A stretch of DNA of 64,000 nt, from the NCBI GenBank assembly GCA_000092065.1, contig CP000582.1; one strand, given 5' to 3'. Source of the stretch: Ostreococcus lucimarinus. Taxonomy: Eukaryota. This document shows, piece by piece, positions 8,008 through 58,886 of the stretch. A model generated the notes under the pieces. It was not told the DNA's origin. It worked only from the letters and a program-made list of their open reading frames with translations, and made no database searches. The first letter of the stretch is position 1, and each line of letters begins with the position of its first letter. Both the position numbers and the translations under genes were made by a program.

Positions 8008-9027
8008 CTAGCTATGTCGCGTCATCTCAAATCTTGCTTGATGGAATAAGGATATCAGGTACAACGTTTGATTTTTCTCAGAGCAAGCGAAACTCAGAGA
8101 GTACTCAATATCTGAAAGTCCTCTGAGCAACCGTGCTCTCGTTCCCGCCGCCATATGCAGGGTAAGCAAAGACTCAGATAGAGGCTTGACGATGTCGACC
8201 AGCGCAAAGTTCTGAGTACATTTCAGACGATTAAAATGTTCAAAAGTCCCTTGGAGTGGTTCGTTGAGGAGAAATCGCAACAGCTCGTCCACTTGGAGCT
8301 GGCCAACATGACCTGTTATCAAATGAATTGCGTCATCTGTGACAACAGATGCCGACAGACTGACACTCTGAAGTATGTTGACGGTCTTCCGCATATCACC
8401 TTCGCCAAGTTTCTGGATTGTCGCAAGTGAGTTATCAGAAATACTGAAGTTTTCGCTATTCACGATATGCCGCAGTCGCTGCAACATATCTCCTGACGCA
8501 ATTGGAGAGAATCTAAATTTCGTGCACCTGCTTTGCAGCGCTGGGATGACTTTGGAGGCGTAATTACATATCAAACAAAAGCGCGTATGCTGAGTGTACT
8601 TTTCCATAATTCTCCGCAGCGCGAACTGTGCGTCTTTGGTCATGCTGTCACACTCGTCCATAATAACGAGTTTGAATGTCGTCGAAAAGGGTCGCATGGT
8701 CGATGCAAATGATTGGATTTCATCACGAACGACATTAATACCACGCGCATCGGAGGCGTTCAGTTCAAGAACCATATTAGAAAAGTTCAATCCATAAAGC
8801 TCTTTAGCGAGCGCCAAGATTGTGGACGTCTTTCCCGTTCCCGGGGGGCCGTGGAACAGTAAGTGCGGAAGCTGGCCGCCATCCGCAAACTTGTTGATGA
8901 CATCAACTATCGCTTTATGTGCAACCACTTCACTCAAACCCACTGGCCGATATTTTTCCGTCCACGGAAGAGCTCTATTCACGCTCGGATCGTCCACACA
9001 AACCATTTCGCCTGAAGCAGGGCGCAC
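8008..9027 (-). CDS. RFC5: Replication factor C small subunit (RFC5-type, 36-38 kDa AAA+ clamp-loader subunit).
   Basis: LPWTEKYRP, Walker A LLFHGPPGTGKTST, VLELNASD, Walker B KLVIMDECDSMT, SRC motif IPALQSRCTKFRF, sensor GDMRKTVNILQS. Collinear with RFC5 over the full length. Its first roughly 155 nt (8873..9027) are duplicated at 12117..12271. Confidence 0.85.
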   Translation of the reverse strand: MRPASGEMVCVDDPSVNRALPWTEKYRPVGLSEVVAHKAIVDVINKFADGGQLPHLLFHGPPGTGKTSTILALAKELYGLNFSNMVLELNASDARGINVVRDEIQSFASTMRPFSTTFKLVIMDECDSMTKDAQFALRRIMEKYTQHTRFCLICNYASKVIPALQSRCTKFRFSPIASGDMLQRLRHIVNSENFSISDNSLATIQKLGEGDMRKTVNILQSVSLSASVVTDDAIHLITGHVGQLQVDELLRFLLNEPLQGTFEHFNRLKCTQNFALVDIVKPLSESLLTLHMAAGTRARLLRGLSDIEYSLSFACSEKNQTLYLISLFHQARFEMTRHS

Positions 9028-9640
9028 GTCGGCGTCGTTCAGATATCTCGAAAGTATGTAATCAGCCAGCCAAAATCACTTTCGTTACCTTTGTGTCTCG
9101 AGCGTCTTCGGTGTTTGCTGTTGCCAAGCAGAACGCGCACGGTATGCAGAGGCTGAGTGCACGTATTCAAAAACTTGAAACCAACGAGTCCCGCGGTCTC
9201 AGCGGGGTCTGTACGTTTAGCGGGTTTATACATATCATATCGTGTTTCTTCGCGCACGGTATGGATTTACAACTGGGGCTTTCAAGCCCCTTTCTATTAC
9301 GCGAAATTACACGATATTTCGCGAAATCATATCAACATAGGTATTCTTGTAGTATAATACGATACTCATATTATAGGAGTAGAAGGCCTAATACTTATGT
9401 GTATTATCTGACACAGTTCTAATAACTCCACGAGAAATGAGCGCGAACCTGTGTTGGCAGGGCGTTCGTCGGCGGCGGCAGTGAGACGCGATAAACGTGC
9501 TGGCGGATATGAAGGATAACATTTCGGTCGGTCTCGACAAGGGACACGCGGTGACTAAGCGCGAGCTTGCCGCGAAGCCTGGTTCGCGTAAGGGGGTGTG
9601 TATTGCTTTCTACTTTCACGGGTTTTTTCTAACTGCGTGC
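8873..9640. repeat. Source copy of a 768-bp segment duplicated at 100% identity at 12117..12885. It contains the RFC5 5' CDS, the RFC5/RPL36 bidirectional intergenic region, RPL36 exon 1 and most of intron 1.
   Basis: The ORF track shows identical ORFs at 8919..9422 and 12163..12666, 9039..9257 and 12283..12501, 9157..9357 and 12401..12601, 9419..9619 and 12663..12863. Sequence is identical base for base from GCTGGCCGCCATCCGCAAAC to CTAACTGCGTGCGT. Confidence 0.9.
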
Positions 9641-10060
9641 GTAGCGTTGTGGTAAGCGTGTTGGAATGATTCGCGGCCTCATCCGGGAAGTGGCAGGCTC
9701 AGCACCTTACGAAAAGCGTCTCGTCGAACTGCTCAAGAACGGGCGGGACAAACGTGCCCTGAAGTTGGCAAAGAGAAAGGTGCGTACCATATCATTCTTT
9801 AGGGCTTTGCGCGCGAGAAGCACCCGTCGACCCCGTTCTCGATCTGCATTCGTGGAGTGGACTTATGAATCGATAATACTCTGCAGTGCATTGTTCATGG
9901 CCGTCTATTTTCGTCGATTGCCGTGCGCGTCCGCCGACTAACGACTGAACTTTCCTGCCAACAGCTTGGGACGCACCTGCGCGCCAAGAAAAAGCGAGAG
10001 GAAATGGGAAACCTTATGCGAAAGGCTAGCCGAAAAGCGCCTGCTCCCGAGAGCAAGTAA
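9509..10060 (+). CDS. RPL36: 60S ribosomal protein L36e. Three exons: about 9509..9595, 9645..9779, 9965..10060.
   Basis: [29 protein letters not shown] | [45 protein letters not shown] | [31 protein letters not shown]. Blocks GLNKGH.VTK and REV.G.APYE...ELLK..KDKRALK match L36e. Donors GTGTGT and GTGCGT. Confidence 0.8.
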
Positions 10061-10475
10061 AACGTAAATAGATTCAAGTTCGTAACTTCAATCGATTGTA
10101 GTTCGTCATTGAAGACTTCACAACTTTACAAAAGACGATCACTACCCCGACAGCAAACAAACCACGTTCACTGTCCATCACCGGCGACTCTTCGGTAAAC
10201 TCTCTCGCTACGATGAAGTAACTGGTGACACTGGTGTTCTACTAGCTCGTACGCATTCCTGAAATCACGAAAAACTAATCCTACAGCTGCCTCGTCTAAG
10301 ATCTCAGCTAGCCCCTCGAATCTCGAGCCGGCTCCACTGCGCGTCGTTCAAAGTTGCGCGACACAAACGAAGCGCTCTTTCTACGGAATCCTATACAAAG
10401 GCATCGACATTCACTCGACTTCGTACCATCATCGTACGCAACTCCTGTTTCGCGTGTTTCTGGAACCTAGTCAAG

Positions 10476-11484
10476 ATGATTCCGGGGGAAGAAACCGGTG
10501 CTTCAGTGACAGTGGCACGTTTAGAGGACGAAACTATCATTTTCGATTTGAAAGGAGTTGATGTCAGCCTAGCAAACGCACTCAGGCGGCTAATGATAGC
10601 GGATGTCCCAACTGTTTCAATTGACTTAGTCGAGGTGATAGAAAACTCCTCTGTTCTGTGTGATGAGTTCTTGGCACACCGCTTGGGTCTGATCCCCCTT
10701 GACAGCACAAAAGCTTCAGAACTCGTGAAGCCTTACGAGTACACTGGAGACGATGATACCGCAACAGATGTGCACTTGGAACTCAATGTGCGATGTCAGA
10801 GCGACCAGACAAGGGACGTCACGAGCGACGATCTGATCTCACACGACGAAAGAGTAAAACCAGTGAGCTTTGGGGGGACAGGTGGTGGTTCTGCGAAGTC
10901 AGGCGGGATTCTGATAGCAAAACTACGCAAAAACCAGCAGTTATCGTTGAAATGTATCGCAAGAAAAGGCACTGGTAAGGATCATGCCAAGTGGTCCCCA
11001 GTCGCTACGGCCGTGTTTAAGTACACTCCCTTGATTGACATCAATCACGGCCTCCTGAACTCGCTAAATGGTAAGAGCCAGACTAGAATTCTTTACCACA
11101 ACTTTAAACGTCACAATGCAGGACCGGAAAAGGCAGCGATCGTGGAGAGCGATCCATCCAAAATGTTTAAATATGACGCCGACACGGATACTTTTACTCT
11201 CACCTCTCCAGAGTCATGTACTTACGATGGTGAAGTTATGAAGAAGGTAAGATTCAACATTCGTTTCATCTATATAAATGAACTCTTGACCTTGACAGGT
11301 AAACGAGCTCGGAAAGCCTGGATTGATTGATGTGCGGCCCGGTCTGGACTGTTTTACTTTCATCGTTGAGTCAACTGGAGTATTGAAAGTTGAGGAGGTT
11401 GTTCTACAGGCAGTGCATATTTTACAAAGTAAACTGGATACTATAGGAGTAAGTTCGTGTTTTGACAAATTAGAAATTCAATAA
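10476..11484 (+). CDS. RPAC1: RNA polymerase I/III shared subunit AC40 (RPAC1). Two exons: 10476..11246 and 11299..11484.
   Basis: LANALRRLMIADVPTVSIDLVEVIENSSVLCDEFLAHRLGLIPL, GKDHAKWSPVATA, then after a GTAAGA..ACAG intron GLIDVRPGLDCFTFIVESTGVL. Collinear with AC40/RPB3-family dimerisation and insert domains. Confidence 0.8.
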
Positions 11485-11579
11485 TTATGTGTCGTAGGGT
11501 GAACTTGAAACGATAGAAAGTGACTCATTCTAGGTTTGTAATTGTTACTGCGAACTGCCATAGGTCACACAAAAGCCAC

Positions 11580-12116
11580 TCACAGTGAGTCGTTTACTCT
11601 CGTCAAAGCATTCAAAGTTTCAACCATGTGTCTGCTTTTCATTTCTTCCGCGTATCGACGACTTTCGTGTACGTCCATTCGAAATGGGCAGAACGAGTAA
11701 CAATATTTGAATTGCAGATAAAAGACTGCAGGTAATAGTGGTGAAAGTATAAAGTCAACCACGGGGCGAACCGGAAGTAGTGGTGTCAACAGTTTGATTG
11801 CTTCACTATTCAATCGTCCCAATCCCTGCACGACTGCCGTGCGTACGATTCGACGACGATAGAATCGCTGCAAGATCTCAGAAATTTCGGACCGTGAGTT
11901 GAGTTTAGACAACATTTGTGCCAACATGTAACCATCTTCGAATGCCAGACCAGTTCCTTGACCAATGTTTGGCATAGTTGCGTGACACGAGTCTCCAAGC
12001 AAGACGACATTTCCTTTCGCCCAGCTTTTCCTTATACTTGGCGTTCGATCGAGCAAGTCACGTTGGATTATACCCCCCTCGTCCGTGGCAGCTATCAGGT
12101 TCCTTACTTCAGGTGC
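11580..12116 (-). pseudogene. 3' fragment of the zeaxanthin-epoxidase-like monooxygenase gene. It carries the original C-terminal coding sequence and the first copy of the 386-bp duplicated block. The inserted segment separates it from the rest of the gene.
   Basis: Minus ORF 11580..12056 encodes ...SWAKGNVVLLGDSCHATMPNIGQGTGLAFEDGYMLAQMLSKLNSRSEISEILQRFYRRRIVRTAVVQGLGRLNSEAIKLLTPLLPVRPVVDFILSPLLPAVFY... This is the same sequence as residues about 340-425 of the upstream ORF, then a different C-terminus. Confidence 0.6.
11730..12116. repeat. 386-bp block that is perfectly repeated at 12886..13272. The two copies flank the inserted segment.
   Basis: Identical minus ORFs at 11810..12010 and 12969..13169, and identical plus ORFs starting 11916 and 13075. 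Sequence is identical from CTGCAGGTAATAGTGGTGAAAG to CCTTACTTCAGGTGC. Confidence 0.9.
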
Positions 12117-12885
12117 TGGCCGCCATCCGCAAACTTGTTGATGACATCAACTATCGCTTTATGTGCAACCACTTCACTCAAACCCACTGGCCGATATTTT
12201 TCCGTCCACGGAAGAGCTCTATTCACGCTCGGATCGTCCACACAAACCATTTCGCCTGAAGCAGGGCGCACGTCGGCGTCGTTCAGATATCTCGAAAGTA
12301 TGTAATCAGCCAGCCAAAATCACTTTCGTTACCTTTGTGTCTCGAGCGTCTTCGGTGTTTGCTGTTGCCAAGCAGAACGCGCACGGTATGCAGAGGCTGA
12401 GTGCACGTATTCAAAAACTTGAAACCAACGAGTCCCGCGGTCTCAGCGGGGTCTGTACGTTTAGCGGGTTTATACATATCATATCGTGTTTCTTCGCGCA
12501 CGGTATGGATTTACAACTGGGGCTTTCAAGCCCCTTTCTATTACGCGAAATTACACGATATTTCGCGAAATCATATCAACATAGGTATTCTTGTAGTATA
12601 ATACGATACTCATATTATAGGAGTAGAAGGCCTAATACTTATGTGTATTATCTGACACAGTTCTAATAACTCCACGAGAAATGAGCGCGAACCTGTGTTG
12701 GCAGGGCGTTCGTCGGCGGCGGCAGTGAGACGCGATAAACGTGCTGGCGGATATGAAGGATAACATTTCGGTCGGTCTCGACAAGGGACACGCGGTGACT
12801 AAGCGCGAGCTTGCCGCGAAGCCTGGTTCGCGTAAGGGGGTGTGTATTGCTTTCTACTTTCACGGGTTTTTTCTAACTGCGTGCG
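12117..12885. repeat. Inserted duplicate of 8873..9640 (RFC5 5' end, bidirectional promoter, RPL36 exon 1), placed inside the ZEP-like gene.
   Basis: 100% identity to the source segment. Junctions are sharp: ...TACTTCAGGTGC|TGGCCGCCATCC on the left and ...AACTGCGTGCGT|GCAGGTAATAG on the right. Confidence 0.9.
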
Positions 12886-14076
12886 TGCAGGTAATAGTGG
12901 TGAAAGTATAAAGTCAACCACGGGGCGAACCGGAAGTAGTGGTGTCAACAGTTTGATTGCTTCACTATTCAATCGTCCCAATCCCTGCACGACTGCCGTG
13001 CGTACGATTCGACGACGATAGAATCGCTGCAAGATCTCAGAAATTTCGGACCGTGAGTTGAGTTTAGACAACATTTGTGCCAACATGTAACCATCTTCGA
13101 ATGCCAGACCAGTTCCTTGACCAATGTTTGGCATAGTTGCGTGACACGAGTCTCCAAGCAAGACGACATTTCCTTTCGCCCAGCTTTTCCTTATACTTGG
13201 CGTTCGATCGAGCAAGTCACGTTGGATTATACCCCCCTCGTCCGTGGCAGCTATCAGGTTCCTTACTTCAGGTGCCCAATCCTTAAAAGTGTTTGTGAGC
13301 GTTTTCTTCGATGGCGTAGACGTGGGTGTGCGAGGTAGCGCCTTTACAAATGCATACCACTGCACTCGACCAAAACGATCTGGACAAACCACAAAATAGT
13401 GATCAGGTCCAATGAAGGCACTATACCCAAGATCGAAATAATCTGAAGAGTTCGAAATCGGCAGACCGCTGTAAAGTTTGAAGCCAGTGTATGAAGCTAT
13501 CGCAAAACGATCATTAACTGTACTTGAAACTTCATCGAACATTTGCGAACGCACCGTACTCCAAATACCATCTGCGCCTATTAAGATGTCGCACGACAGT
13601 GTTTCTCCATTCTCAAGAAAAACTTCTACTCCTTTGTCTGATTCGAAGTACCTTGATACTGCAGTCCCCATTCTCACTACTTCTCTATCGGTAGAGACTC
13701 GATTTAATTCTTCTAGCAAAACGGATTGAAGATCCGATCTATCGATACAAATCGAAAACGGTAGACTGTCCTCGCATGGTATTTGTGTTATGGCATCAAA
13801 TGTAAACATCCATTCGGAGGTGATGCCGTCTCGGATCCCACTCTTTGTAGACCAAAACGGCCGACTAGCTGCTCGTATATTCTTCGCGAGTTCATCACTG
13901 ATAGCATGCGCAACACCCATGCCATTGCTAGCGAGCTGAATGGGACCACCTAACGGTTTATACTCTTTTGTTCTCTCCAGCACAGTAACGTTCATTCCCT
14001 GCTGAACGAGACATATCGCAGCAAATAGCCCCCCAAGACCTCCTCCGGCTATGATGATGTCGACATTTGCCTTCAT
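12799..14076 (-). CDS. Zeaxanthin-epoxidase-like FAD-dependent monooxygenase. The N-terminal roughly 397 aa are intact. The reading frame then runs through the second 386-bp block into the inserted segment and ends in an unrelated tail.
   Basis: Rossmann DIIIAGGGLGGLFAAICL...NVTVLER. The ZEP/salicylate-hydroxylase-type motif GDSCHATMPNIGQGTGLAFEDGYMLAQML matches plant ZEP GDS.HAMQPN.GQGGCMAIED. After ...ILSPLLPA the ORF continues as [14 protein letters not shown]..., which is translated promoter DNA of the duplicate. Confidence 0.7.
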   Translation of the reverse strand: MKANVDIIIAGGGLGGLFAAICLVQQGMNVTVLERTKEYKPLGGPIQLASNGMGVAHAISDELAKNIRAASRPFWSTKSGIRDGITSEWMFTFDAITQIPCEDSLPFSICIDRSDLQSVLLEELNRVSTDREVVRMGTAVSRYFESDKGVEVFLENGETLSCDILIGADGIWSTVRSQMFDEVSSTVNDRFAIASYTGFKLYSGLPISNSSDYFDLGYSAFIGPDHYFVVCPDRFGRVQWYAFVKALPRTPTSTPSKKTLTNTFKDWAPEVRNLIAATDEGGIIQRDLLDRTPSIRKSWAKGNVVLLGDSCHATMPNIGQGTGLAFEDGYMLAQMLSKLNSRSEISEILQRFYRRRIVRTAVVQGLGRLNSEAIKLLTPLLPVRPVVDFILSPLLPARTQLEKTRESRKQYTPPYANQASRQARA

Positions 14077-14899
14077 GTCGGTGCAAGCGCGGACGCCCGC
14101 ACGCGGGCTTTTAAAATCGCGCGGCCATCCTTTTCCGGACGACCTTTGATAACACTGGCGGCTATTTTGGTCGAGCTTCACGTGCCTCGCCACACGTGTT
14201 TTCAGCATCATGAGGCAGCAAATACTGACCAGTGCGAGATGCGAGTCCTAAAGGGGTCAGTCTACGCACAACGAAGAACTGATGTCCCTCAGTACCCACG
14301 GCGCACGCTGCCGCGTGACTTCTCGACGGTCAACCGGTGTAATATTCCCACATGCGATATCACCCATGTGAGATATTGTCCGTCGCGGTTTATGGTCGCA
14401 TTTTATACTTCAGTCCATCAGTTGATGCGGTCAATTTGTATCATAACATGGAAAAATAGAGTGAAAAATCGTGTTGGAAATGTCACAGCGGATAACGATC
14501 CACTGAGGCAGGCGATACTCGTCACAGCGAGCGCGCTTCACCTCAGACGGCCCCACGCAGACGCAAACCTATCGTACAAAATGCTTACCACGTGTTCCTT
14601 CACACGCTTCAGTGTACCGGTAGCTAGAGAGCTCTGCACTTCGCGGCGCTCCCAGCGCACCGGTTCCCGCGTTGCGCGTGCGAAACCCTCCGCCGCGTCC
14701 AACTTCGAACTAAATAACGCTATGAAAGCTACCGCAACTCTAGGTGCGTATACAGTAATTGTGGGATTTTTTTGACGTTCTTACGCCTATCCACGTGCAT
14801 TCGCACTGTGGCGACTCGGAAATCTGCGTGCCTAGTGGCTGACCGCGTTTTAATCCGATCCGAACAGTTGCGACCCTCCCGTCGCAAGCGGCGATTGCC

Positions 14900-15145
14900 A
14901 TGCCGAGCTATGACCAAGACATCATCGAGGTAGTGTTAGTTTCGATATCAATTTGGGGTTTTCTAACATTTAGCTCTAGATGACGCAGCTTGCGGGAGTT
15001 CCCACTCCGCTTTTGTATTTTGGTTTTTTGACCACTTCCCTGGTATTTGCTGCTGGCACGGTAAGGACTTGCCTCGAATCACTCCAAACCATTGACTAAT
15101 TTGAGATTACAGTACATCGCTCTCAGTAAGATCAAGTTGATTTGA
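14900..15145 (+). CDS. Small three-exon ORF for a single-pass membrane micro-protein, possibly OST4-like. Exons: 14900..14929, 14980..15060, 15113..15145.
   Basis: All splice sites canonical and all exons phase 0: MPSYDQDIIE | MTQLAGVPTPLLYFGFLTTSLVFAAGT | YIALSKIKLI. One hydrophobic helix. Exon 2 alone starts with ATG and would give a 37-aa OST4-sized product. No strong homology. Confidence 0.35.
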
Positions 15146-16979
15146 TGAGCTAAACGCTCGCTTAGATACCTCTACAATCCTCAAACCACGGTGGGCGTGG
15201 TATCGACAATAGTTTCGATGATAGAAGACTCGTATGATGCAATTCTATCATCGGCCTTTACTCACAACTTAGTATACTACGCGGCGTTAAGTGCTCGGGG
15301 AGATCACGCTCGCATCTCGCTCTACGTAATCCCCTGCGTGGCTAAAACACAAATATTTCATACATTTCCTCGTCTCACCCCTAGCCCGGGTTTGTTAACG
15401 GTTTGTTCACTCGCAAACATGCAACCTGGATAGCTTTATAGCTCAGTCGTAGACACATGAAACTGATCGGTCTAATCAGCGGCACGCTCCACGACTCTGT
15501 TATACATTCCTAACACTGACCTTTGACCGACGTTATCGCGGCGTCCCACTTCCAACTGTCAACATTCGTTAAGTCTGCAAATACTTGAGAAATCATAAGA
15601 TACCATCTCCAAGTGACCGTCTTCACGCTTCGATCGAGTGAAAAGCTTTTCGAAACAGCCCTGTGAAAGTAATAAGAATAAAACAACGAAACAATTTTAA
15701 AAAGTACCTTCGTGGAGTTGCACTGGTTTGCACTCGTCGGAAAAATGTGGGAAAGGAATTTTCTGTGCAACTTCGGGCAAATGTTCTCTAGTTGATCGCC
15801 CTGTGCAAATATTAAAACTGATAGTGGGGCGCTTTTGTAAATTCACCTTCGAAGGATGCTGCTGTCGTCGAACTGTCCACATCAGTTCAACGTCCAACTG
15901 CTGAGAACGTCCCGACAAAAGTTTAACATGTCCATGGCAAACGAACTCTGTGCCACACTGCTACAAAAGCTAAGACTCGAATGGAGAGACTCGATTGGAG
16001 AGAAATAAGCTCGCTACCTTTTTGCCGATGAGGTGACTATCGCAATATTCTGCACGGTTGCTATCTATCGTTCTGCGGTCACACAGCGCCAATAGTAAGA
16101 CACTCCTGAGAATTCGTGCTTCACAGCCCACAAAGTCTACACTCGATAGACAATTATTGACAATCAACGTTTTTCTAGCTATGATCATCGTGACAAGCCA
16201 AGTCGTATCGACCCCGAGCTAGCAGTGGATGAGTTTCAGAGACTGGGAACATAAGTATGAGAGAACTTACAATTTTTGCAACACCGAAAGCAAGATTAAT
16301 GCGACCTAAAACAATAAGTTGCTTCAGTATCTCACAAACCCCACCGTTTTCGATGTCTTCCAGCGTTACGGGCACGCGAAGAAATCTGTTGCAAATTTGT
16401 AAGGCGCGAACGTGCTTGCACATCTGTAACAGTTGAGAAAAATCCTTCTGAAAGGCTATGTGCGCCCACCTTAGAAAGCCTCTGGCCATAGTGCTGCCGC
16501 TCAAATTGATGTGAACGATGTATGGAGGTTGCCAGCGTCACAAAGGCGATGTCTCTCTTGCCTGTACAACTCGATAGAATAGAAAGTATACGAGGACTCA
16601 ACTTACTGGGCTCGCATGTTCGGACGAATTCAAATTGCCGTTCAATCGGTTCCTGGGGTCGCCCAGGTCGATTAATCATCGCGATGTCAGGTGATCGGGC
16701 GCGGCGCGCTACGGAATAAGTAACATCGTGCGGCTCACCAACTCTCCGCGTCCTCGCGCGATTCGTGCACAAGTTTTCTCCCGCCTCGGAAATTGTACAG
16801 TTCCATATATTGTCATTGAGACACCTATGTGTACGATCGCACTACTTTCCGAATCGCGGCGCTCGAGTGAAACTGCGAAAGTGTACAGCATAACCGTCAC
16901 GCGCGACGTCACCATCCGACGCGTCTTCACCAGATCCGTCTGTCGCACACCCAAACGAAAAATCTTTTGCTCTTAACTC

Positions 16980-18805: not shown

Positions 18806-20959
18806 ATGGCCGATGAAGCATACACGCGAGAGCGGGAGCTTATACGAGAGTTTCTTCAGACATTCGAAGGGAGAGACGGCAGCCCACATTACCGGCGCGC
18901 GCTGCAAAAAGTTTTGGACCGCCAAAGTTGTTGCGTGGACATCGATTTGCAGGACGTGAAAGAGTTTTGCGGGGCACTTGAAGAGCGCGAGGAACTCTTA
19001 GACCGGATCACGTCGAATTGCAAACGCTACGCTACTTTATTTGCGGAAGAAATTGACGGATTGATAAAAAACCTGGCGTCTTCGAGTGCTTCACTCTCTG
19101 AAGTCGGTGAAGATGATCTAGACGTGTTTCTGCAGCGGCATTCCGATGATATTGGCGAGCGAAGCGAAAATCCAGCACCCGAAGTGTTACGACGTGCATT
19201 TGATGTTTTCTTCAAACCCCTGAAAGGAACTAAATCTCTCAAGATGCGCGACATACGGGCTAATATGATAGGGCACTATGTCACTTTCAAAGGCATGTGT
19301 ACACGGATAACTGATGTGAAGCCGCTCATCAAGGTAGCCTGCTATACATGTGAAGGTTGTGGACACGAGTACTTCCAAGAAATCAATGGCAACGAATTCA
19401 TCCCGAAGCAGTTCTGCCAATCGCAAACTTGCAACAAAAAGTTTGCACTATTCATTGAAACACGGGCGTCAAAATTTGCAAAATACCAGGAGGTCAAAGT
19501 GCAAGAAATGTCAGAAGACGTGCCGATCGGTCACGTTCCTAGGTCAATGTCGATATCACTGATCGGTGAAATGACTAGAAAGCTTGCTCCGGGAGATACA
19601 ATTGATATCAGTGGAGTTTTCCTACCACGTCCAAGTGTTGGATACTTGGGCAACTCAAGTCTTGTTTCGACCACATACTTGTATGCAATGTCGGTCACAC
19701 CGCATAAGTCGAAGACAACTAGCTCGGATGCGACTCCGGAGGTGCTGGAGAGGCTGCATAAGCTCAGAGAAACCCCAGACATATACACGCACTTAGCAAA
19801 ATCTATTGCCCCTGAAATTTATGGCCACGTTGACATAAAAAAAGCTCTTTTACTGTTGCTATGTGGTGGAGTAACGAGAACACTCCAAGATGGTGTCAAG
19901 ATTCGTGGTGATGTTCATGTTTGTCTTATGGGCGATCCCGGTGTTGCCAAATCCCAGCTGTTGAAACAGATAGTCTCTATTGCAACTCGCGGAGTTTATA
20001 CAACTGGGCGGGGCAGCAGTGGTGTAGGTCTTACAGCGTCAATTCAAAGAGATAACATTACAAGCGAATTAGTGCTAGAAGGTGGTGCGCTCGTACTAGC
20101 TGATAAAGGTATATGCTGCATAGACGAATTCGATAAAATGGAAGAAAGCGATCGAACGGCTATACATGAAGTCATGGAGCAGCAAACCGTCAGTATCGCG
20201 AAAGCTGGGATAACCACAACTCTAAATGCACGAACAACAGTCCTCGCAGCAGCAAATCCGGCATTTGGTAGATACAATACAGCTGCTACACCCCAGGAGA
20301 ATATTAATCTACCGGCGGCACTCCTAAGTAGGTTTGATTTGATGTGGCTTATTTTGGACGTTCCTGATCCCGACTCTGACATTGAACTGGCTCGCCATGT
20401 TATGAGCGTACATCGCGAAGGTCGCCCACCGTCCACAAGTTTTGATCCAGTCTCAACCTCTGAACTGCGAGCTTACATAGATGTCGCGCGGCATTTTGAC
20501 CCTTACATCCCGGAAGACCTTGCAGACGACATCGCCAGTGCATATGCCGGTATTCGTCAGGTTGAAGATGAAGCTGGAAGTGAGGCGACTGGTTATACCA
20601 CCGCTCGTACGCTACTATCTATCATTCGACTTGCAGAAGCTCTCGCACGGCTCCGTTGGGCACCTATTGTCTCCGGGAAAGATATCGAACAGGCACTCAA
20701 CCTGATGAAGATGTCGAAGGCGAGTCTAGAAATTCACAAGTCGTCAACAGCACTACGCTCGGATCCCGTCGAGAATTTGTATTTGCTTCTACGGAACTGG
20801 GCTAGTGATCACTCGAATCAATTCATAAGCGCTTCTATAGTTCGTCAGCTGGCGACGAAAAGTGGCTTATCAGGTGTCCTTGATGCTTGCATGAGTGAGT
20901 ATACGGCTCTCGGGGTGTGGGTTATGGACAGTGACAGCAACATAACGTTCGTAGACTAG
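18806..20959 (+). CDS. MCM7: DNA replication licensing factor MCM7, single exon, 717 aa.
   Basis: Zinc finger YTCEGCGHEY...QFCQSQTC, Walker A GDPGVAKSQLL, Walker B/arginine finger CCIDEFDKM...SDRTAIHEVMEQQTVSIAKAGITTTLNARTTVLAAANP, and MCM7-specific N-terminal blocks. Confidence 0.9.
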   Translation: MADEAYTRERELIREFLQTFEGRDGSPHYRRALQKVLDRQSCCVDIDLQDVKEFCGALEEREELLDRITSNCKRYATLFAEEIDGLIKNLASSSASLSEVGEDDLDVFLQRHSDDIGERSENPAPEVLRRAFDVFFKPLKGTKSLKMRDIRANMIGHYVTFKGMCTRITDVKPLIKVACYTCEGCGHEYFQEINGNEFIPKQFCQSQTCNKKFALFIETRASKFAKYQEVKVQEMSEDVPIGHVPRSMSISLIGEMTRKLAPGDTIDISGVFLPRPSVGYLGNSSLVSTTYLYAMSVTPHKSKTTSSDATPEVLERLHKLRETPDIYTHLAKSIAPEIYGHVDIKKALLLLLCGGVTRTLQDGVKIRGDVHVCLMGDPGVAKSQLLKQIVSIATRGVYTTGRGSSGVGLTASIQRDNITSELVLEGGALVLADKGICCIDEFDKMEESDRTAIHEVMEQQTVSIAKAGITTTLNARTTVLAAANPAFGRYNTAATPQENINLPAALLSRFDLMWLILDVPDPDSDIELARHVMSVHREGRPPSTSFDPVSTSELRAYIDVARHFDPYIPEDLADDIASAYAGIRQVEDEAGSEATGYTTARTLLSIIRLAEALARLRWAPIVSGKDIEQALNLMKMSKASLEIHKSSTALRSDPVENLYLLLRNWASDHSNQFISASIVRQLATKSGLSGVLDACMSEYTALGVWVMDSDSNITFVD

Positions 20960-25734: not shown

Positions 25735-25890
25735 ACAGTATCCGTATGTATTACTTTCCACGCCCTAATGTATGGGGTGTTAGCACTTCTCGATCGCCAC
25801 GCGCGCGTTGTGGCGTCGTCGCGAGTTATTAGCACTTCGACGGCGCGCACATATTAGGGACGTGGAAAGTAATACATACTGATAACATTA
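25735..25890. repeat. Imperfect inverted repeat of about 25-35 bp arms flanking a roughly 90-bp core, possibly a MITE-like element.
   Basis: Left arm ...CCGTATGTATTACTTTCCACGCCC; right arm GGGACGTGGAAAGTAATACATACTGATAACATTA. The internal region repeats TTAGCACTTC twice. It sits in the intergenic region upstream of the elongase gene. Confidence 0.35.
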
Positions 25891-35760: not shown

Positions 35761-36756
35761 GTGTGTTATCGGTGTGAATCTATGTACGCGCATCGTTTAA
35801 TAGACCGTTGCACGTCGTATTTGTAATTTGTAACTAAGGTATCCACGTGTACTAGTAGTTCTAGACACCTCAAAGAGCTAATGCAGCTCTCTGGCTGTTT
35901 TAGTTGGTGCTATCAAAAATTGCGCATAGTAAGCGCGAACATTCGCCTTGTGTTTGAAGCCGCTGTTGTGTTGCTTTCGGACCGTTGCCGAGTCGTGTGT
36001 CAGGTGGGCGTTGCAGTAGTCTGAAGCGGAATATTGTTGAGGTATGTTGTACTTTTACCAACAGCGAGAAATGTGCGTACCGCAGTAATACCGTGCCATG
36101 CTGCGCCGTGTGTTCGCTCTAGTAACGAGCCTCCTGTTTCCACTTCGGAATGTGGAGTTATCCGAGCTCTTCTAGTCTTAACTCGCGTTACTCCTGCACT
36201 CCAGAACTGCAGAAGCAATGTGCCGCGCGCTCGCCCTCGCACGAGTCTCGGAATGAAGTTCTGACTCAGAACTTCTGAGTTAGCCGATTTCCGCTATCGG
36301 ATTCCTGGGTCATTACGGCCCGTAATTACGGGGAAGAATCGTATAATGTTTGTTTTATCCCATATTTGATTGAGCAAGCCAGCCTTAGCTCAGTACTTAG
36401 AACGTGCACAGTAAGTTCCAGTCCAGCTTCTAGAAGTTTGAGCTTGATCTTACAGAGCTTGATTAGCAACACACTCCGTAGAATGTCGGTGAAATAACAG
36501 CGCTATAGTATAGTAGTGATAATATGAACATGATAATATTATCATTGTTGATATTAATATCAACAATGAGTTGCGCCACGATTAAGCGTCTTGAATAAAA
36601 CGTACTCGGGACTTCTTCTCAGCTTGCATAAGGCCTTTCTCTTGGCGATACGATGAACATAATGTATAAGTTATTTCTTTATTTCGTTGTACAGAGTGAT
36701 ATACGCTACAGATGCGACACTATGGTCATATACTGAATACGAGCGATTATTTCAGG

Positions 36757-49910: not shown

Positions 49911-52193
49911 TCACCTACGTTTGCCTTTGGTACAACAAATAACGTTCAATGTACCCAAGTTATTACTCGTGGTATTGTCTAACTCACTCTGCTTTCTACT
50001 CAAATCGCGGGACATCCGTTTCAAGCACATAACGTCTATTTTCTTACTCGTCGAATTCAGCATACTTAAACTCAGTGCAAGCAAGTGTTCTAAGTGTACC
50101 GATTCTGACAAAAGCTCGAAACATGTAACGATGATTGCCTCGGCAAAACTACTCGAAGTATTTCGCATGGCAGCCATTTGCTGCGAAGTTGGCACGCGAT
50201 TTAAAATTGCCTGAAGTACAAAGGGTGTCGTCTTCAGCGCAGCTGCCAGATGTAAGGCCGACAGAAAGTCCTTACGTTGTAAGGCAGAAGCGACATTCGG
50301 CAATGATGCATCTTCAGATAGCCGAGTTGATATTTCATTTTCGTCCGCAGCAAGTCTATGAATATGAACTCCTCTCTTCGTCACAATAATGAAAACATCG
50401 GATTCTTTACTGTATGATAGAGCTCCAACAATATTCTTAGTGGGCATAGAAAGACCTACGTGCGGCAGATGTCGCTTAAGTAGAGTGTGCCGTCCGGGGT
50501 CATAGATACATATAAGTGCCGCTGACGTGCTACAAACAAGCATAGACCCAGACGGGTTGTACTGTAACGAAATGAAACTAGAATCGTCATTGAGTCGCGG
50601 AACATCTCGCGAGTAGTCCACAGTTCCCAAAAGTTGACTTCCTTCCATCTTCCAAAATGCTATTTTTTGCCCGGAGGTAGATACAGCTAATTGTTTATCA
50701 TCGCGGCGTATTGCGACTGCAATCACATCACGACTGTGTGGAATGACTTCACAGGCGAACTCTCGATGGCTCATGTCCCACAGTCGGACTGTACCATCCC
50801 AAGATCCAGACACCATGGTTGTCGTCATGCAGAAGTCCAAGGAGGAGATGATAGCGCTGTGACCAGACAGTACCTCAAGGAGTTGACCTGTGGTGAACGA
50901 CCACATCAGTATCTGAAATGTGTCTAGCGTACTTGCACATACGAGTTCCTCGCTAGCATCGACAGTAACTCTGTTGAATCTACTGTCAAATGAGGCTGTA
51001 AACGTCCGAAAAACACGCAGTCTATGTATGTCATGAGCGCGAACTGTGCCATCAAAGCTCGCGGACAAGAATCCGCCGCCGGATCGTAAGCATTCTACTG
51101 CCGAAACTAGTGCTTCGTGGTGATGAAATGTCGCCACGCATGACGAGGTCTGAATGCTCCAAACATTCACAACACCACTGTGCGTTCCAGTGATGAGTGT
51201 CTCGCCGTCGTCACTCAAAGTTGTACAGCTAACGCTTGCCGTGCTCGTACGGTGGTTCAGCCTTAAACTTTGCGAGCTTGTATCCCATACAACAATTCTT
51301 TCCGTTCCGAAAAGCGCTAAGCTCTCGCCCGTTTCATCGAAGCAGCATTTCTCTACATCAAAACCGAACGTGATCTGCCCCAGTTCTTGTGCTGTTTGCA
51401 CTGCGAACAATTGCACAAGATCGGGTGACGTGACCACCGCGACTTGATGTGCCCTATGACTAAATGTCGCGTATAACACCTCATTCACCGTGCCCAGCTT
51501 TTCTCGACGCACCAACTGCTTTTTAAACGGAGACATTGAGTCGTCATGATTTGTTACAGAGCACTCCAGTAATGTCCCAGCACGCGTTATGCTGATTATC
51601 TCATTCTTTTCACGAAACGAGACCGCAGCGATGTTTCTGTCATCAAATAGTATGCATCGATATTTGCCTGAGCACTCACGGTGGTATAGTCTGCATGTGC
51701 TACCCGCAGATACTGCGAAATGTCCATCGTCACTTTGTCCTCCAAAGCCGGTGACCGTGCCCTCAGCAATTGTTTCCCTAAATACTCGATTCATAGGTTC
51801 GGTCGGCGTGTAGCACTTGTTTTGCCATACTTCCAGTGCATGATCGTAAAGCACAACAACATTTGGCCATGTTCCACCTGCACTTGATACGAACTGCACC
51901 AAAAGCGGGAGCCCTGCCATTTTCTTGCGTTGTATCTGTGTCGCCGTGGCGATGTTGAAGATTGTGATGTAGTCGTCCCTATCTAGTGCAACCAAAATCA
52001 TCCTTTCAACACTAACATCTATTGACTTAATGCCTACGCGTTCGTTCCTGGCGATACATTTGCTGCTGGATGTTTGTACATCGACTTCAGAAACCACGTT
52101 GTCGGTTGCGACAAAAACCCTCCCTCTAGAGTAAACGACGCGGTTTGAATCGAAATCTGTATTGACGACTCCGCACGTAAGAAGTCGACTCAT
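49911..52193 (-). CDS. PWP2: WD40-repeat SSU-processome protein, periodic tryptophan protein 2 (PWP2/UTP1)-like.
   Basis: N-terminus from MSRLLTCGVVNTDFDSNRVVYSRGRVFVATDNV... resembles PWP2 (FSNLLGTVYRRGNL.F...G..V.SPVGNRV). About a dozen WD repeats (GHSAIISSLDF, WDGTVRLWD, HEALVSAVE...) and a helical Utp12-like C-terminal region. The ORF extends 5' to 52397, but homology begins at Met-69. Confidence 0.7.
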   Translation of the reverse strand: MSRLLTCGVVNTDFDSNRVVYSRGRVFVATDNVVSEVDVQTSSSKCIARNERVGIKSIDVSVERMILVALDRDDYITIFNIATATQIQRKKMAGLPLLVQFVSSAGGTWPNVVVLYDHALEVWQNKCYTPTEPMNRVFRETIAEGTVTGFGGQSDDGHFAVSAGSTCRLYHRECSGKYRCILFDDRNIAAVSFREKNEIISITRAGTLLECSVTNHDDSMSPFKKQLVRREKLGTVNEVLYATFSHRAHQVAVVTSPDLVQLFAVQTAQELGQITFGFDVEKCCFDETGESLALFGTERIVVWDTSSQSLRLNHRTSTASVSCTTLSDDGETLITGTHSGVVNVWSIQTSSCVATFHHHEALVSAVECLRSGGGFLSASFDGTVRAHDIHRLRVFRTFTASFDSRFNRVTVDASEELVCASTLDTFQILMWSFTTGQLLEVLSGHSAIISSLDFCMTTTMVSGSWDGTVRLWDMSHREFACEVIPHSRDVIAVAIRRDDKQLAVSTSGQKIAFWKMEGSQLLGTVDYSRDVPRLNDDSSFISLQYNPSGSMLVCSTSAALICIYDPGRHTLLKRHLPHVGLSMPTKNIVGALSYSKESDVFIIVTKRGVHIHRLAADENEISTRLSEDASLPNVASALQRKDFLSALHLAAALKTTPFVLQAILNRVPTSQQMAAMRNTSSSFAEAIIVTCFELLSESVHLEHLLALSLSMLNSTSKKIDVMCLKRMSRDLSRKQSELDNTTSNNLGTLNVICCTKGKRR

Positions 52194-52648
52194 ATGGCTT
52201 TGTGTTGCGTTCTGGCGCAAGTATCCGCCTTCAAAGCGCGCGCGCTCAGTTTTGCCGGCGGCGCACGTTGGCTTTCGAGCGCTCAGTGCAAACTCATTTT
52301 CATACTGACGTATCCAGCTGTATACGGGCGTATATATATTGGGTGACTTATTAGTGATACAATATGCTCGCGCGTAAACAAACCCGAACTTTGTCAAATC
52401 TCGGCCTCGCGGTAAATGTGCGGGTTCTGTTGCGTTTAGCCAGACCCTCGTTTCACGTGACAGTTGCCGGTGCTGCCCGTATCACGTTATACCCTCTGCT
52501 CTGACTTCGTCTCAAAGTTTCCGACGATTGACTGTAGTACTCGAACCCGCCGCGGCTGCACGGGCTTCCTGTGTTCGGATAAGCAGCGACGATGTGCATA
52601 TCTGCACCGCGCGTAGCCAGGCTTTCATCAAGTCAAACAGAGTTGAAG

Positions 52649-53976
52649 ATGTCCATGAGATCAGTGCGATCCAACACCCGACGTAGCAGTACGACCCAAT
52701 CTCTTTCGGTACGTTTCTAACGCCGTGAATATGAAGTCAAACTCACTCATCGACACGCACATGACACAGGGTACCAGTGCAAACTTGCTAAGCGTAGTGG
52801 CGGGAACGCAGCAGGCTCGATCTGTTGACGGTGTTCGAGTATTACAGCGTGAAGGTACTCTTGGCATTCAATATCTCGTGAGCCTCGAAGACGAGACGAG
52901 AGTATGGTGATGTCACGTACTGCTGTTTCGACTTGACACTAACACAGTTGTAGGCTGCCCAACGAATGTGTAGCCGACGATTTGAGGAGTCAGTACGGTC
53001 TAGAGTGGTGGAACGCGTGTCGACAGGTGCGTAAACCAGCCCGCAAATGATGCCAGCATTATCCTGAAAGAAACCATAACCAGGGTGACCAAGCTACCCT
53101 AGAGAAGTTCTTGAGTACAAGCTCCGGGACTTTGCTGCACTCCAAGGACTCAAAACAGAGAAGGTATATTGCTGATGGAAAAGTGAAGCGCATCTAAAAT
53201 AAATACTGTCTAGCCCCATTCATTTTCTTGCAGGGGTTGGCGACACATTCGTTCTTGACCGACTGTTGAAAGAAGGCGCAGATGTAAACGCCCAGGTATG
53301 CTGCCCATTTTAATTATTTCTAATTTGATCTCAGAATCTTAGGACGTCGATGGCTACACGGCTGCGCACCTCGCTGCTGGGTACATGAGACTCGACTCCC
53401 TACGGTGCTTACTTAGTGCAGGAGCTGATGCAGAACTCGAGGATAACACAGGTCGCTCGGTACGCTCGACACACTTAGTGCACTTTCTTGCTTCTTATCT
53501 ATTCACTCAAAGGTGCAAGGACTAGTGCAGACCCTTCTTTCGAATACGCCAGTAACAACGACGACGTATTCGCGCAGAGTGGCACTAGAGTCAATGTTAT
53601 CTGCCATAGAGGCCCATATATATGAAGAGATTGTCCCTGTCGCGCTACTTTCAAAGCGCTTGTCAAACGGCACTGCTGAATACCTGGTGAGATGGATCGA
53701 CGGTGAGGCTGCAAGCTTATATTAAACACCATGTACTAATACTAGATCAGACGTTGATGATATGTGGGTACCGGAGGGAGATATCGCGGATGATGTCATC
53801 CAGACATTCGAAGAGAACTTAGAGCTCACAAAAGGGGAGCTATTGACGCAGAAAGAAGACGAGAGTAATGGACAACGTAGGCTCATTCAGGTGAGGCTAA
53901 TTATTGTTTGGGGTTAATCAGACAAATTGATTCCTTATTTCAGTGGCATGATTCGCAAATCTTGACATGGATCTAA
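52649..53976 (+). CDS. cpSRP43: Chloroplast signal recognition particle 43-kDa protein (cpSRP43). Ankyrin repeats flanked by chromodomains; about nine exons.
   Basis: Transit peptide exon MSMRSVRSNTRRSSTTQSLS. Chromodomain 1 GTLGIQYLVSLEDETRVW; LEWWNACRQ. Ankyrin repeats GDTFVLDRLLKEGADVNAQ|DVDGYTAAHLAAGYMRLDSLRCLLSAGADAELEDNTG. Chromodomains 2 and 3 AEYLVRWID|DVDDMWVPEGDIADDVIQTFEE...|WHDSQILTWI. This CD-Ank-CD-CD architecture matches Arabidopsis cpSRP43/CAO and is specific to the green lineage. Confidence 0.8.
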
Positions 53977-54093
53977 CGTGCCAATAGACAAAGCACTAAC
54001 CTTGCCAACTTGGCACTTGAGTGCCAAGTGGCAAATATTAAAAAGCCTGTTGAGGCTCTCTTCACTTGGAAGGATATCCCAGTCACTCAGGGC

Positions 54094-54975: not shown

Positions 54976-55377
54976 CTCAATATCTCTCTTTTAAAGTAGA
55001 GCCCGCAGCGCCGTGCGACGTATTGAATATTCCGGTGTATACGTGTGTTGCGAAGTTGTCTTGATTTTTCAGGTCGAGTCGCTGCGCAAACTGGGGGGAA
55101 CATTGTTGGGTTTGTCGGTTTGTTGATTTGCCGCAGTGGCTGTGATGTATTTTGAGAAATGTACTTTCACGATACGTATACTTATGAACTTGAAACGCCT
55201 ATATATTCATTGGACGATACGAGCGCTCGAGATCCGAAGTCGCGAGGATCTCCGCTACACGCACTCGCCAGGGCACCACTTCAACGCGCGCGGCGCAGCG
55301 TACAATTGCAGCACATTTTATCTAGTTCATACACAACACGTGACCAGCTGAAATACCGTCCGGTTGCCTCCCCCAGA

Positions 55378-56283
<906 letters not shown>

Positions 56284-56433
56284 CCTTGTTTGCCGAACAG
56301 TTTCTACAACTTGATTCGGAGCCCAGTGTAGTAAGTTGTTGCACACGTGTAATACGAATACTAGTACAAGTAACCAGCACGAAATTTATACTTTCGGTGA
56401 ACGCAGAACAGTCGACGTTCGAGTCAACATCGA

Positions 56434-58745: not shown

Positions 58746-58886
58746 TTGCTGACAGTTTTGCAGTTTTTTTGATCCGATCGAGTGTACAAATCACACTGTA
58801 CTGCGACTGTTTTTAATAATAATCATATTGGTATGTTCTAGTTTCTACTTTTGACCACCATTCAAAGTCACTATTGCAGTTCAGCT

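Follow-up and report, generated by a model that had tools for sequence, protein, structure and literature searches.

A 772-bp copy of the RFC5/RPL36 start region between two 390-bp copies of a ZEP-like gene in Ostreococcus lucimarinus: a derived, private rearrangement that fits a templated-insertion cycle

We asked how a piece of the RFC5/RPL36 region came to lie inside a zeaxanthin epoxidase-like (ZEP-like) gene of Ostreococcus lucimarinus, between two copies of that gene's own coding sequence, and whether this arrangement arose in the living alga or in the course of sequencing. The window, i.e. the whole stretch of DNA that was analysed, is 64 kb long (64,000 nt). An initial annotation, made from the sequence alone, had described an A-B-A structure in it, and an exact-repeat comparison of the 64-kb window confirms both this structure and its gene content, with small corrections (Table 1). 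The A pair (390 bp) and the B pair (772 bp, in direct orientation) are maximal identical pairs without a single mismatch. They had been given as 386 and 768 bp; these sizes are a few bases short and the intervals quoted for them unequal when taken literally, but the repeats are real. The two pairs are the sole repeats of at least 30 bp in the whole window, and exact matches of such length cannot be due to chance.

Table 1. Features of the rearranged locus and of its source region (positions in the window)
Feature	Position	Strand	Basis or remark
RFC small-subunit gene (human RFC5/yeast RFC3 type), encoding 332 aa when read from the ATG at 9006	8008..9006	-	Pfam AAA, Rep_fac_C and RFC lid domains
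B0, source copy of the inserted segment	8871..9642	.	exact match to 12115-12886; single and at the same position in all population contigs covering 8871..9642
RPL36 gene (ribosomal protein eL36), exons 9509-9595, 9645-9779 and 9965-10060	9509..10060	+	spliced RNA-derived contigs L024 and L026
Orphaned ZEP-like 3' part, made up of A1 and the authentic last 48 codons with their stop codon	11580..12116	-	tail identical to P0001/P0121 and conserved in homologues
A1, first copy of the duplicated host segment (ZEP-like codons 268-397)	11727..12116	.	exact match to 12886-13275
Duplicate RFC5 start: the copied ATG at 12250 opens 45 RFC5 codons, followed by 3 out-of-frame codons in A1 and a stop	12104..12250	-	translation
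B, inserted copy of 8871-9642	12115..12886	.	exact match; missing at the site in 21 independent contigs
Duplicate 502-bp divergent RFC5/RPL36 spacer (presumed bidirectional promoter)	12251..12752	.	part of the exact copy B
Second copy of RPL36 exon 1 (12753-12839), followed by the 5' splice site and 47 intronic nt	12753..12886	+	sequence and splice mapping
Truncated ORF of the ZEP-like FAD monooxygenase; length 470 aa with the first ATG as start, 425 aa with the ATG at 14076	12799..14211	-	translation; Pfam FAD_binding_3
A2, second copy of the 390-bp host segment	12886..13275	.	exact match to 11727-12116

At the first A/B junction the two segments overlap by 2 bp (GC, 12115-12116) and at the second B/A junction by 1 bp (T, 12886), with no untemplated filler bases and no long homology at either. 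The two junctions (12116/12117 and 12885/12886) are clustered, only 770 bp apart, and form one derivative structure with a net gain of 1159 bp over the collapsed form, so that the total rearrangement amounts to ∼1.16 kb. The source copy of B is intact and in place as in the population contigs, which means a copy-number gain rather than a cut-and-paste event, and A stands on both sides of B, i.e. the host segment has been re-replicated as in a templated-insertion 'cycle'. By our own calculation the probability of a chance overlap per junction is 0.44 for at least 1 bp and 0.16 for at least 2 bp; overlaps of 1-2 bp are not above chance and alone are no pointer to microhomology-primed synthesis. 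We found no hairpin-forming inverted repeats, which could stall a fork, at the four breakpoints.

What does the rearrangement do to the ZEP-like gene? Its ORF runs through the second A copy into B and then stops, as the initial annotation had stated; it consists of 397 native residues (445-aa numbering) followed by 28, and not 29, unrelated residues from B, with the stop at 12799. The authentic C-terminus was also correctly placed, as it lies only beyond the first A copy (the last 48 codons, 11726 down to 11580), but it is not a separate exon, the RNA contigs being colinear there. In the homologue alignment this 48-residue C-terminus, which is missing from the truncated ORF, is conserved and has a family-specific tail (F-x-LQF-x-YCYS-F/L-CP). 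The protein carries a group A flavoprotein monooxygenase domain (Pfam FAD_binding_3, E 8e-22; match to PDB flavoprotein monooxygenases, E 3e-27), and an identical protein has been named 'zeaxanthin epoxidase' by JGI. Plant ZEP has a C-terminal FHA domain; the Pfam scan of the ZEP-like protein found no FHA domain. 'ZEP-like' is the proper level of naming. If the rearrangement is real, the monooxygenase would lose its conserved 48-residue C-terminus. The proposed inactivation of the gene is plausible, although the flavoprotein monooxygenase core would be kept. A natural nonsense allele of the gene (GGA-to-TGA at codon 302, C to A at window position 13173) also segregates, which shows that the loss of the intact protein is tolerated. 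Partial ZEP-like proteins of 131 and 301 aa were considered as products of a split allele and rejected; they originate from this nonsense SNP and from contig ends.

The inserted segment brings the 5' ends of two divergent genes. One is the RFC small-subunit gene, for which human RFC5 is the best match in the PDB (E 2.9e-92). Its 5' end is indeed contained in B, but the copied part measures 136 nt if counted from the ATG at 9006, and 157 nt if an in-frame GTG further upstream is taken as the start, rather than the 155 nt first given. The other is RPL36, with splice sites taken from spliced RNA-derived contigs, introns of 49 nt and 185 nt and a spliced CDS of 105 aa (Pfam Ribosomal_L36e, E 4e-36). 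In agreement with the first description, B includes the entire 502-bp spacer separating the two ATGs, RPL36 exon 1 (9509-9595) and most of intron 1 (47 of the 49 nt, 9596-9644). The duplicate RFC5 start shares its strand with the ZEP-like remnant, while the duplicate RPL36 exon 1 runs antisense into the truncated ZEP-like ORF, and the GCAG at 12887-12890, made by the junction, could possibly act as a new, putative splice acceptor. No tRNA or Rfam RNA was found in or near B, including the spacer copy (12251..12752). In the population, the middle of the divergent promoter in the source copy is a hot spot of insertion/indel polymorphism. Active MITE-like elements are also present in the region.

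By its sequence features, the window belongs to the low-GC, small-intron region of O. lucimarinus chromosome 2 (BOC1, the candidate MT- mating-type locus). A Bathycoccus origin, suggested at first by a GC of 46-48%, and a single-cell (MDA) origin were set aside once the cluster to which MCM7 belongs pointed to O. lucimarinus. Its MCM7 is identical to XP_001416209.1 of strain CCE9901, its GC content is 44-50%, its introns (besides the 185-nt RPL36 intron) measure 49-52 nt and it holds a set of housekeeping genes (RFC5, RPL36, RPB3, MCM7, TFIIA, H2A, eIF6 and HSP70). Low GC, many introns of 40-65 nt and clustered housekeeping genes are the traits described for this chromosome 2 region (PMC2367439, PMC3491373, PMC8557840, PMC7016971).

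Which of the two arrangements is ancestral? Removal of the 1159 bp restores a 445-aa ORF that is letter-for-letter identical to protein P0001, which occurs in 131 blocks of public metagenome assemblies, and longer versions of this protein (P0121 and P0125) are found on a further 19 and 94 contigs. All 24 of the 24 loci that were fetched, from 21 distinct records (21/21 independent contigs across the site), have the single-A spacing without B, and these same contigs are otherwise 99.3-100% identical to the window. The closest contigs are colinear with the window at 99.94-99.99% identity over 1580-40355 and 50344-64000, with no other structural difference in the 61 kb compared; one contig (L037) has only 2 base differences to the window over 22.5 kb and is without the rearrangement. 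Unaligned contig ends were considered as candidate junctions and rejected as Illumina adapter remnants. Since homologues at 50-66% identity also carry the uninterrupted C-terminus, the collapsed form is the ancestral one.

We then asked the reverse question: does the rearranged form occur anywhere else? The junction 24-mers TACTTCAGGTGCTGGCCGCCATCC and AACTGCGTGCGTGCAGGTAATAGT were present in 0 of the 24 fetched loci. Both junctions, as exact 34- and 36-mers, had zero matches in 241 million JGI metagenome records (contigs), and an exact k-mer scan with the first junction had zero matches in the IMG/VR and GTDB genomes. An exact look-up of five junction-specific ORF products (the 425-, 469- and 470-aa chimeric ZEP-like proteins, the 55-aa RFC5-start ORF and the 52-aa RPL36-exon-1 read-through ORF) found none among 153 billion gene positions, in a gene collection in which the 48-aa wild-type analogue of the 52-aa ORF is routinely called. 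The ZEP-like protein cluster has no NCBI member, which tells for neither arrangement, as a truncated ORF of 425 aa would equally have been annotated. On the evidence of these comparisons, made with assemblies of which none is known to be from the same clone as the window, the rearranged arrangement is derived and private to the window sequence, and the collapsed arrangement is ancestral and population-wide. Because the junctions and their products are in none of the collections searched, the allele is known from one sequence only, and an artefact would look just the same.

The structure is either a recent, one-off mutation that the sequenced clone acquired, its kind being well known, or an artefact of sequencing, and both alternatives named by the initial annotation, a recent template-switch insertion and an artefact, are still standing. 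The best explanation, to which we give an even chance, is a derived copy-and-paste rearrangement of the chromosome 2 (MT-) locus, formed in a single event in a living haploid clone as a templated-insertion cycle (a local 2-jump of the FoSTeS/MMBIR type). In its favour, the three pieces come from one 5-kb locus, in direct orientation and with 2-bp and 1-bp overlaps without filler. The sequence comparisons show the structure, its gene content and its derived, private status, whereas one event, a polymerase template switch and an origin in vivo are what we infer. A DNA polymerase copying the ZEP-like gene would have let go of its template after 12116, started again at 8871, 3.2 kb further back, with the 2-bp overlap as primer site, and copied 772 bp (the RFC5 start, the divergent spacer, and RPL36 exon 1 with intron 1). 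It would then have left at 9642 and rejoined the host template at 11727 on the 1-bp overlap, 390 bp behind its point of departure. Copying these 390 bp a second time would leave B flanked by duplicate A segments and both source copies intact.

Could the arrangement have arisen outside the alga instead? In that case a double template switch or a local recombination would have occurred in vitro or in a cloning host, with the genome itself collapsed; a strand-displacing or PCR polymerase may have been responsible while the DNA was amplified, or a plasmid or fosmid subclone may have rearranged in E. coli, and the product would have entered the consensus through thin coverage or through finishing that relied on a rearranged molecule. 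We consider such an origin possible, but less likely than one in the living clone. Template switching by amplification polymerases gives local chimeras with short junction overlaps, both copies are perfectly identical, and the allele is in no other sequence, including the contig that differs by 2 bases in 22.5 kb. The zero divergence had been read as meaning that the event is either very recent or a mis-assembly; it is confirmed, but it has almost no dating power, as ocean copies of this haplotype differ by just ∼2-4 bases per 10 kb. Both of two coordinated junctions, which bound one clean 772-bp insert, would have to reach the consensus, whereas ordinary chimeric reads are outvoted at normal coverage, and the rest of the window has no other structural oddity compared to the population contigs. 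Should the window be the finished Sanger reference of CCE9901, with which the MCM7 match is consistent without proving it, reads of ∼800 nt would reportedly span A, and clone pairs the whole structure, which argues against an artefact.

Plain mis-assembly, as the initial annotation had proposed it, is unlikely, because junctions with overlaps of 1-2 bp require reads that contain them in overlap or k-mer assemblers. There is no N run in the 64-kb window and no gap or contig end near the structure, and the overlaps are too short for a join through a shared repeat or k-mer. Random co-ligation is excluded as well, since by our own estimate the chance of drawing three fragments from the same 5-kb locus in a genome of 13 Mb is ∼1e-7. 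Therefore an artefact would have to be a rearrangement at the polymerase or clone level, and it is this form of the proposal that survives. A real but non-replicative origin is improbable in our view: a staggered double-strand break in the ZEP-like gene, with nicks ∼390 nt apart, would have captured a free 769-bp RFC5/RPL36 promoter fragment, released by excision or over-replication, and overhang fill-in and end joining would have produced the 390-bp flanking duplication, like a giant target-site duplication. The junctions are blunt-like, with overlaps at chance level and no filler, and the polymorphic middle of the source promoter may be fragile. Junctions of 1-3 bp are described as compatible with NHEJ as well as MMEJ or MMBIR (PMC5120786). 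Against this, a stagger as long as 390 nt would be needed together with a free fragment originating 3 kb away, both of them unusual, the captured fragment would have to be an extra copy as the source is intact, and one polymerase path accounts for everything; yet the final sequence itself appears to fit both routes alike and does not distinguish them. We give practically no credence to B being a transposon or a retrocopy, even though a direct duplication flanks the insert and MITE-like elements are active nearby. Transposable-element insertion was ruled out, as B has no inverted or terminal repeats (no TIR/LTR termini) and exists in just two copies, one of them the neighbouring genes themselves, while a 390-bp flanking duplication is far beyond transposon target-site duplications. 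A retrocopy was ruled out, as B combines the starts of two divergently transcribed genes with the spacer between them and an intron that is still unspliced, which no single transcript could template.

If the template-switch insertion is real, it would provide a base-pair-resolved replicative templated insertion in one of the smallest free-living eukaryotes, with the ancestral state exactly known from many environmental copies. The second copy of the divergent housekeeping spacer would point RPL36 exon 1 antisense into the truncated ZEP-like gene and the RFC5 start into the orphaned 3' part, where it is out of frame. The strong promoter and the chimeric transcripts suggested by the initial annotation are putative. 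Through the two 390-bp repeats, recombination could restore the original allele exactly. Together with the natural nonsense allele, the insertion would single out the ZEP-like gene as one that is dispensable or in decay on the MT- haplotype. Suppressed recombination in the candidate mating-type region is expected to let damaging changes persist (PMC8557840). A more far-reaching reading, which we regard as rather unlikely, is that the rearrangement is a true allele of an O. lucimarinus MT- clone, be it wild or cultured, that this allele and the codon-302 nonsense allele represent repeated, independent knockouts of the ZEP-like monooxygenase in a non-recombining haplotype, that the duplicated promoter drives antisense transcription through the remnant and that recombination between the 390-bp repeats could exactly revert the knockout. 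This would mean a very old haploid mating-type locus degenerating in real time, or a repeated advantageous loss. For users who take this sequence as a reference, the ZEP-like gene model is broken in the window sequence, a 0.77-kb RFC5/RPL36 piece is duplicated and reads from natural populations will map to the window as though they had a 1159-bp deletion; if the structure is an artefact, the value of the finding is a reference correction. The kind of event is well known whether real or artefactual, and its general interest is modest.

Finally, we compared the structure with known systems. False duplications from amplification or cloning are local, perfectly identical extra copies with short junction overlaps that are absent from independent data, all as here. 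Such chimeras usually have single junctions, are often inverted and are lost in the consensus, in contrast to the two coordinated direct-orientation junctions in an otherwise clean 64-kb sequence. Among real rearrangements, the topology matches a named, well-documented class, as 'cycles' that re-replicate a host segment are a described structural-variant topology (PMC7025897). The PCAWG cycles of templated insertion, or local 2-jumps, reported there likewise have two linked junctions, an inserted template with its source intact, a path leading back to the host chromosome, where a host segment is replicated again, one additional copy of all segments and little or no junction homology. They are somatic, come from human tumours and usually involve segments of kilobases to hundreds of kilobases, whereas here segments of 0.39 and 0.77 kb all lie within 4.4 kb in a haploid alga, in one sequence only. 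For the FoSTeS/MMBIR complex insertions of Gu et al. 2016 (PMC5120786), the model being that of Hastings et al. 2009 (PMC2621351) as cited there, the path proposed is also to leave, copy a distant interval and return at a more proximal position, and a fork that switches back in this way leaves a duplication on either side of the insert. As here, they show templated inserts hundreds of bp long and junctions of 0-3 bp; those events are human and constitutional, often interchromosomal and much larger, with a mechanism that is inferred there too, and the microhomology in our case is at chance level. In favour of an origin in the alga, the CCE9901 reference already has a suspected recent duplication chimera, chromosome 21 (PMC2367439), and culture lines of O. 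mediterraneus gain private structural variants with ∼4-nt junction microhomology (PMC13390643). Unlike the present structure, these variants are deletions, translocations and duplications of 10-240 kb that concern chiefly the small outlier chromosome and have a link to virus resistance, and in the part of PMC13390643 that we draw on no kb-scale templated insertion is described for these lines. Nevertheless, they are the same genus, private duplications and translocations arise quickly in their clonal lines with short (4-nt) or no junction homology, and chromosome 2 is among the chromosomes affected.

The duplicated piece of the ZEP-like gene (A) and the inserted copy of the RFC5/RPL36 promoter region (B) were delimited by a repeat search with base-by-base extension. 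A is an exact direct repeat of 390 bp (A1, 11727-12116; A2, 12886-13275), and B (12115-12886) is an exact direct repeat of 772 bp of its source, B0, at 8871-9642. These repeats bear out the A-B-A arrangement described in the initial annotation, which had paired the repeats correctly and had placed the interval ends a few bases short, with unequal lengths. A1 and B have the dinucleotide GC in common where they meet, and B and A2 a single T; neither junction contains filler bases, and the net gain over the collapsed form (a single A and no B) is 1159 bp. No other repeats of at least 30 bp and no N bases were found in the 64-kb window. By our own calculation, random joints overlap by at least 1 bp with P = 0.44 and by at least 2 bp with P = 0.16. 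Random joints give as much; the 1-2 bp overlaps are compatible with microhomology-primed synthesis as well as with end joining and support neither route.

Gene structures were set by two public Logan contigs, L024 and L026, which are spliced and therefore RNA-derived. Compared with window 9440-15960, both span RPL36, RPB3 and the ZEP-like gene in a single piece; L024 additionally covers an upstream multi-intron gene, and five introns lie within this contig. RPB3 and the ZEP-like gene converge, and their stop codons (11484 and 11580) lie only 95 bp from each other, so the two transcripts overlap or read through. The RNA-derived contigs also show natural expression of the ZEP-like gene in its intact form. 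B holds the 502-bp divergent spacer with, on the RFC5 side, 136 nt of CDS counted from the ATG at 9006 and, on the RPL36 side, exon 1 plus intron 1 for 47 of its 49 nt; A comprises codons 268-397 of the ZEP-like ORF. The nearest solved structure to the RFC protein is that of human RFC5 (yeast RFC3). No tRNA or Rfam family was found in the region.

Genes and elements at the rearranged locus (window coordinates unless a contig is named)
Feature	Position	Strand	Basis or remark
RFC small subunit	8008-9027	-	Pfam
RPL36 exons	9509-9595, 9645-9779, 9965-10060		spliced contigs L024/L026; L36e by Pfam
RPB3-type RNA polymerase subunit	10476	+	Pfam
RPB3 introns	11071-11121, 11247-11298		spliced contigs L024/L026
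ZEP-like gene			FAD_binding_3 monooxygenase (Pfam); intronless per L024/L026
MITE-like copy	L035 1479-1624		inserted after window ~9240

In the window, the ZEP-like ORF starts at 14211 or 14076, crosses A2 into B and, after 28 unrelated residues, reaches a stop at 12799; its authentic final 48 codons sit below A1. The truncated ORF keeps the monooxygenase core, the part alignable to flavoprotein monooxygenases of solved structure. The lost tail, which contains F-x-LQF-x-YCYS-F/L-CP and an RH-x-x-E motif, is conserved in all six aligned homologues (50-66% identity). A Pfam scan found no FHA domain in the protein, and the name 'ZEP-like' is therefore fitting. If the arrangement is real, the haploid clone would make a ZEP-like protein without its conserved tail, and the exact wild-type sequence would return on recombination between the two 390-bp copies. 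Translation from the copied RFC5 start would enter A1 out of frame and meet a stop 3 codons later; an RFC5 fusion protein is therefore not expected. The copied RPL36 exon 1 is oriented antisense into the truncated gene, and the junction creates a possible splice acceptor (GCAG, 12887-12890; predicted product 35 aa).

A nonsense allele of the same gene is present in four independent public assemblies or samples (loci L005, L006, L007 and L016). Here a plus-strand C to A change at the position of 13173 in A2 (12014 in A1) turns codon 302 of the 445-aa ORF from GGA to TGA, and in gene calls the gene appears as two products, of 301 (346 in L005) and 131 aa. The Logan contig L015 breaks exactly at the variant base, as expected for a polymorphic site, and in the window codon 302 is intact in both A1 and A2. 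This natural allele shows that loss of the intact ZEP-like protein is tolerated.

When 11727-12885 is removed, the 445-aa ORF that results matches the database protein P0001 at 100% identity along its full length. P0001 is indexed in 131 assembly blocks; the longer-start variants P0121 and P0125 add 19 and 94 further contigs, respectively. Of the proteins listed in the 90% cluster, all those extending to the C-terminus end in the authentic tail. Among 40 loci retrieved, 24 (21 distinct records from JGI, ENA and Logan, many samples) cover A and both flanks; all 24 have single-copy spacing, and none contains the 24-mers of either junction. Apart from the insertion, the window and these contigs are colinear over 1580-40355 and 50344-64000, the closest contigs being 99.94-99.99% identical, and L037, with 2 differing bases in 22.5 kb, nevertheless shows the collapsed form. 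Neither junction sequence matched JGI metagenome contigs, the first had no match in IMG/VR or GTDB genomes, and none of five junction-specific ORF products occurred among 153 billion gene positions; one of these products has a 48-aa wild-type counterpart, which gene calling picks up in most contigs. From the P0001 match, the single-A contigs and the absent junctions, we infer that the A-B-A form is derived and, judged by public assemblies, private to the window sequence. It may be a low-frequency natural allele, since it holds all wild-type k-mers shorter than 390 nt and a rare variant would be pruned in short-read assembly. Independent copies of the window haplotype show only 2-4 differences per 10 kb, so the lack of differences in 1.16 kb, read in the initial annotation as a possible sign of a very recent event, tells little of age.

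MCM7 (18806-20959) and XP_001416209.1 of Ostreococcus lucimarinus CCE9901 have identical sequences, and the window has a GC content of 44-50%, ~50-nt introns and densely clustered housekeeping genes. Such hallmarks are shown by the low-GC part of Ostreococcus chromosome 2 ('BOC1'; PMC2367439; PMC3491373), the candidate mating-type locus, for which CCE9901 is MT- and natural MT- genes are ~99.6% identical to CCE9901 (PMC8557840; PMC7016971). Judged by these sequence features, the window is this region, and its place there accounts for the nearest named relatives being only 54-72% identical. Six private SNPs in ~50 kb compared mark the window as an individual clone and could help to recognise its source. 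They lie at 6719, 18801, 37486, 50840, 53998 and 59101, each differing from all fetched contigs covering it, and one is non-synonymous (T211 for M in the 281-aa WD40 ORF 58887-59732). The G at 10325 is common to only some contigs.

The locus's most variable stretch in the population is 9178-9442, in the middle of the RFC5/RPL36 spacer: L020 is divergent and indel-rich over 9178-9250, and the L001/L002/L019 haplotype carries a MITE-like insertion there, inside B0. An apparent spacer deletion in L038 was merely a run of N. The inserted copy is 96% identical to a ~142-bp MITE-like element at 25741-25882 with ~30-bp terminal inverted repeats (GTATGTATTACTTTCCACG...), which is missing from L029, L035 and L038. 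On the strength of this presence/absence and of the spacer copy, the element appears to have been recently mobile within the MT- region. Among L029, L035, L038 and L039, 18661-18714 (54 bp) and 36390-36529 (140 bp) are present in only some haplotypes, and L035 has ~270 bp of extra DNA at ~23090. L039 (ERZ27313077 k141_377067) carries wholly different genes past 23093 (MS channel, Sfi1), owing either to structural variation or to chimerism of the contig. The independent short-read contigs L032, L033 and L034 end within 20 bp of one another at 62883-62904, where four ~68-kb P0001 contigs (the records of L001-L004) also extrapolate to end and only the 360-kb JGI contig continues; the shared end point suggests that a repeat or a site of strong polymorphism follows directly. 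Ends of public metagenome contigs resembling novel junctions (L005 1-61, L012 1-26, L013 1-38 and 794-838) were Illumina/Nextera adapter remnants.

The three pieces joined here stem from a single 5-kb locus, lie in direct orientation and leave both templates in place. That locality excludes random co-ligation of fragments. Overlap or k-mer assembly is also ruled out, because it cannot join sequences that share just 1-2 bp, and some molecule with the A/B and B/A junctions must therefore have existed. The simplest path to it is one polymerase switching templates twice: it would exit its template at 12116, copy 8871-9642 and re-enter the host template at 11727, so that A is copied twice. We give such switching in vivo an even chance. 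Capture of a free fragment by end joining at a 390-nt staggered break in vivo needs more assumptions and is unlikely, and a tandem duplication with a later insertion precisely at the joint is improbable. B failed the defining tests for a transposon and for a retrocopy, and no hairpin-forming repeats were found at the breakpoints.

An amplification reaction or a cloning host could yield the same double switch, and the allele is unique to the window sequence and missing even from near-identical contigs. In favour of an origin in vivo, the two coordinated junctions lie within otherwise clean, gap-free sequence, the gene tolerates loss of its intact product, the reference strain already has a suspected recent duplication chimera, chromosome 21 (PMC2367439), and Ostreococcus culture lines gain private structural variants (PMC13390643). 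We regard an artefact in vitro or at the clone level as possible but somewhat doubtful, and all remaining explanations together as very improbable.

The initial proposal, a recent template switch or else a mis-assembly, is upheld in part: A-B-A is either one more, fresh case of a known rearrangement class or a reference error. In FoSTeS/MMBIR insertions, synthesis returns to its template at a more proximal point, which leaves a duplication at the insertion site; 0-3 bp junctions and templated inserts measuring hundreds of bp are reported (PMC5120786). The A-B-A topology is exactly that of these insertions, and it is also that of the 'cycles of templated insertions' or local 2-jumps (PMC7025897).
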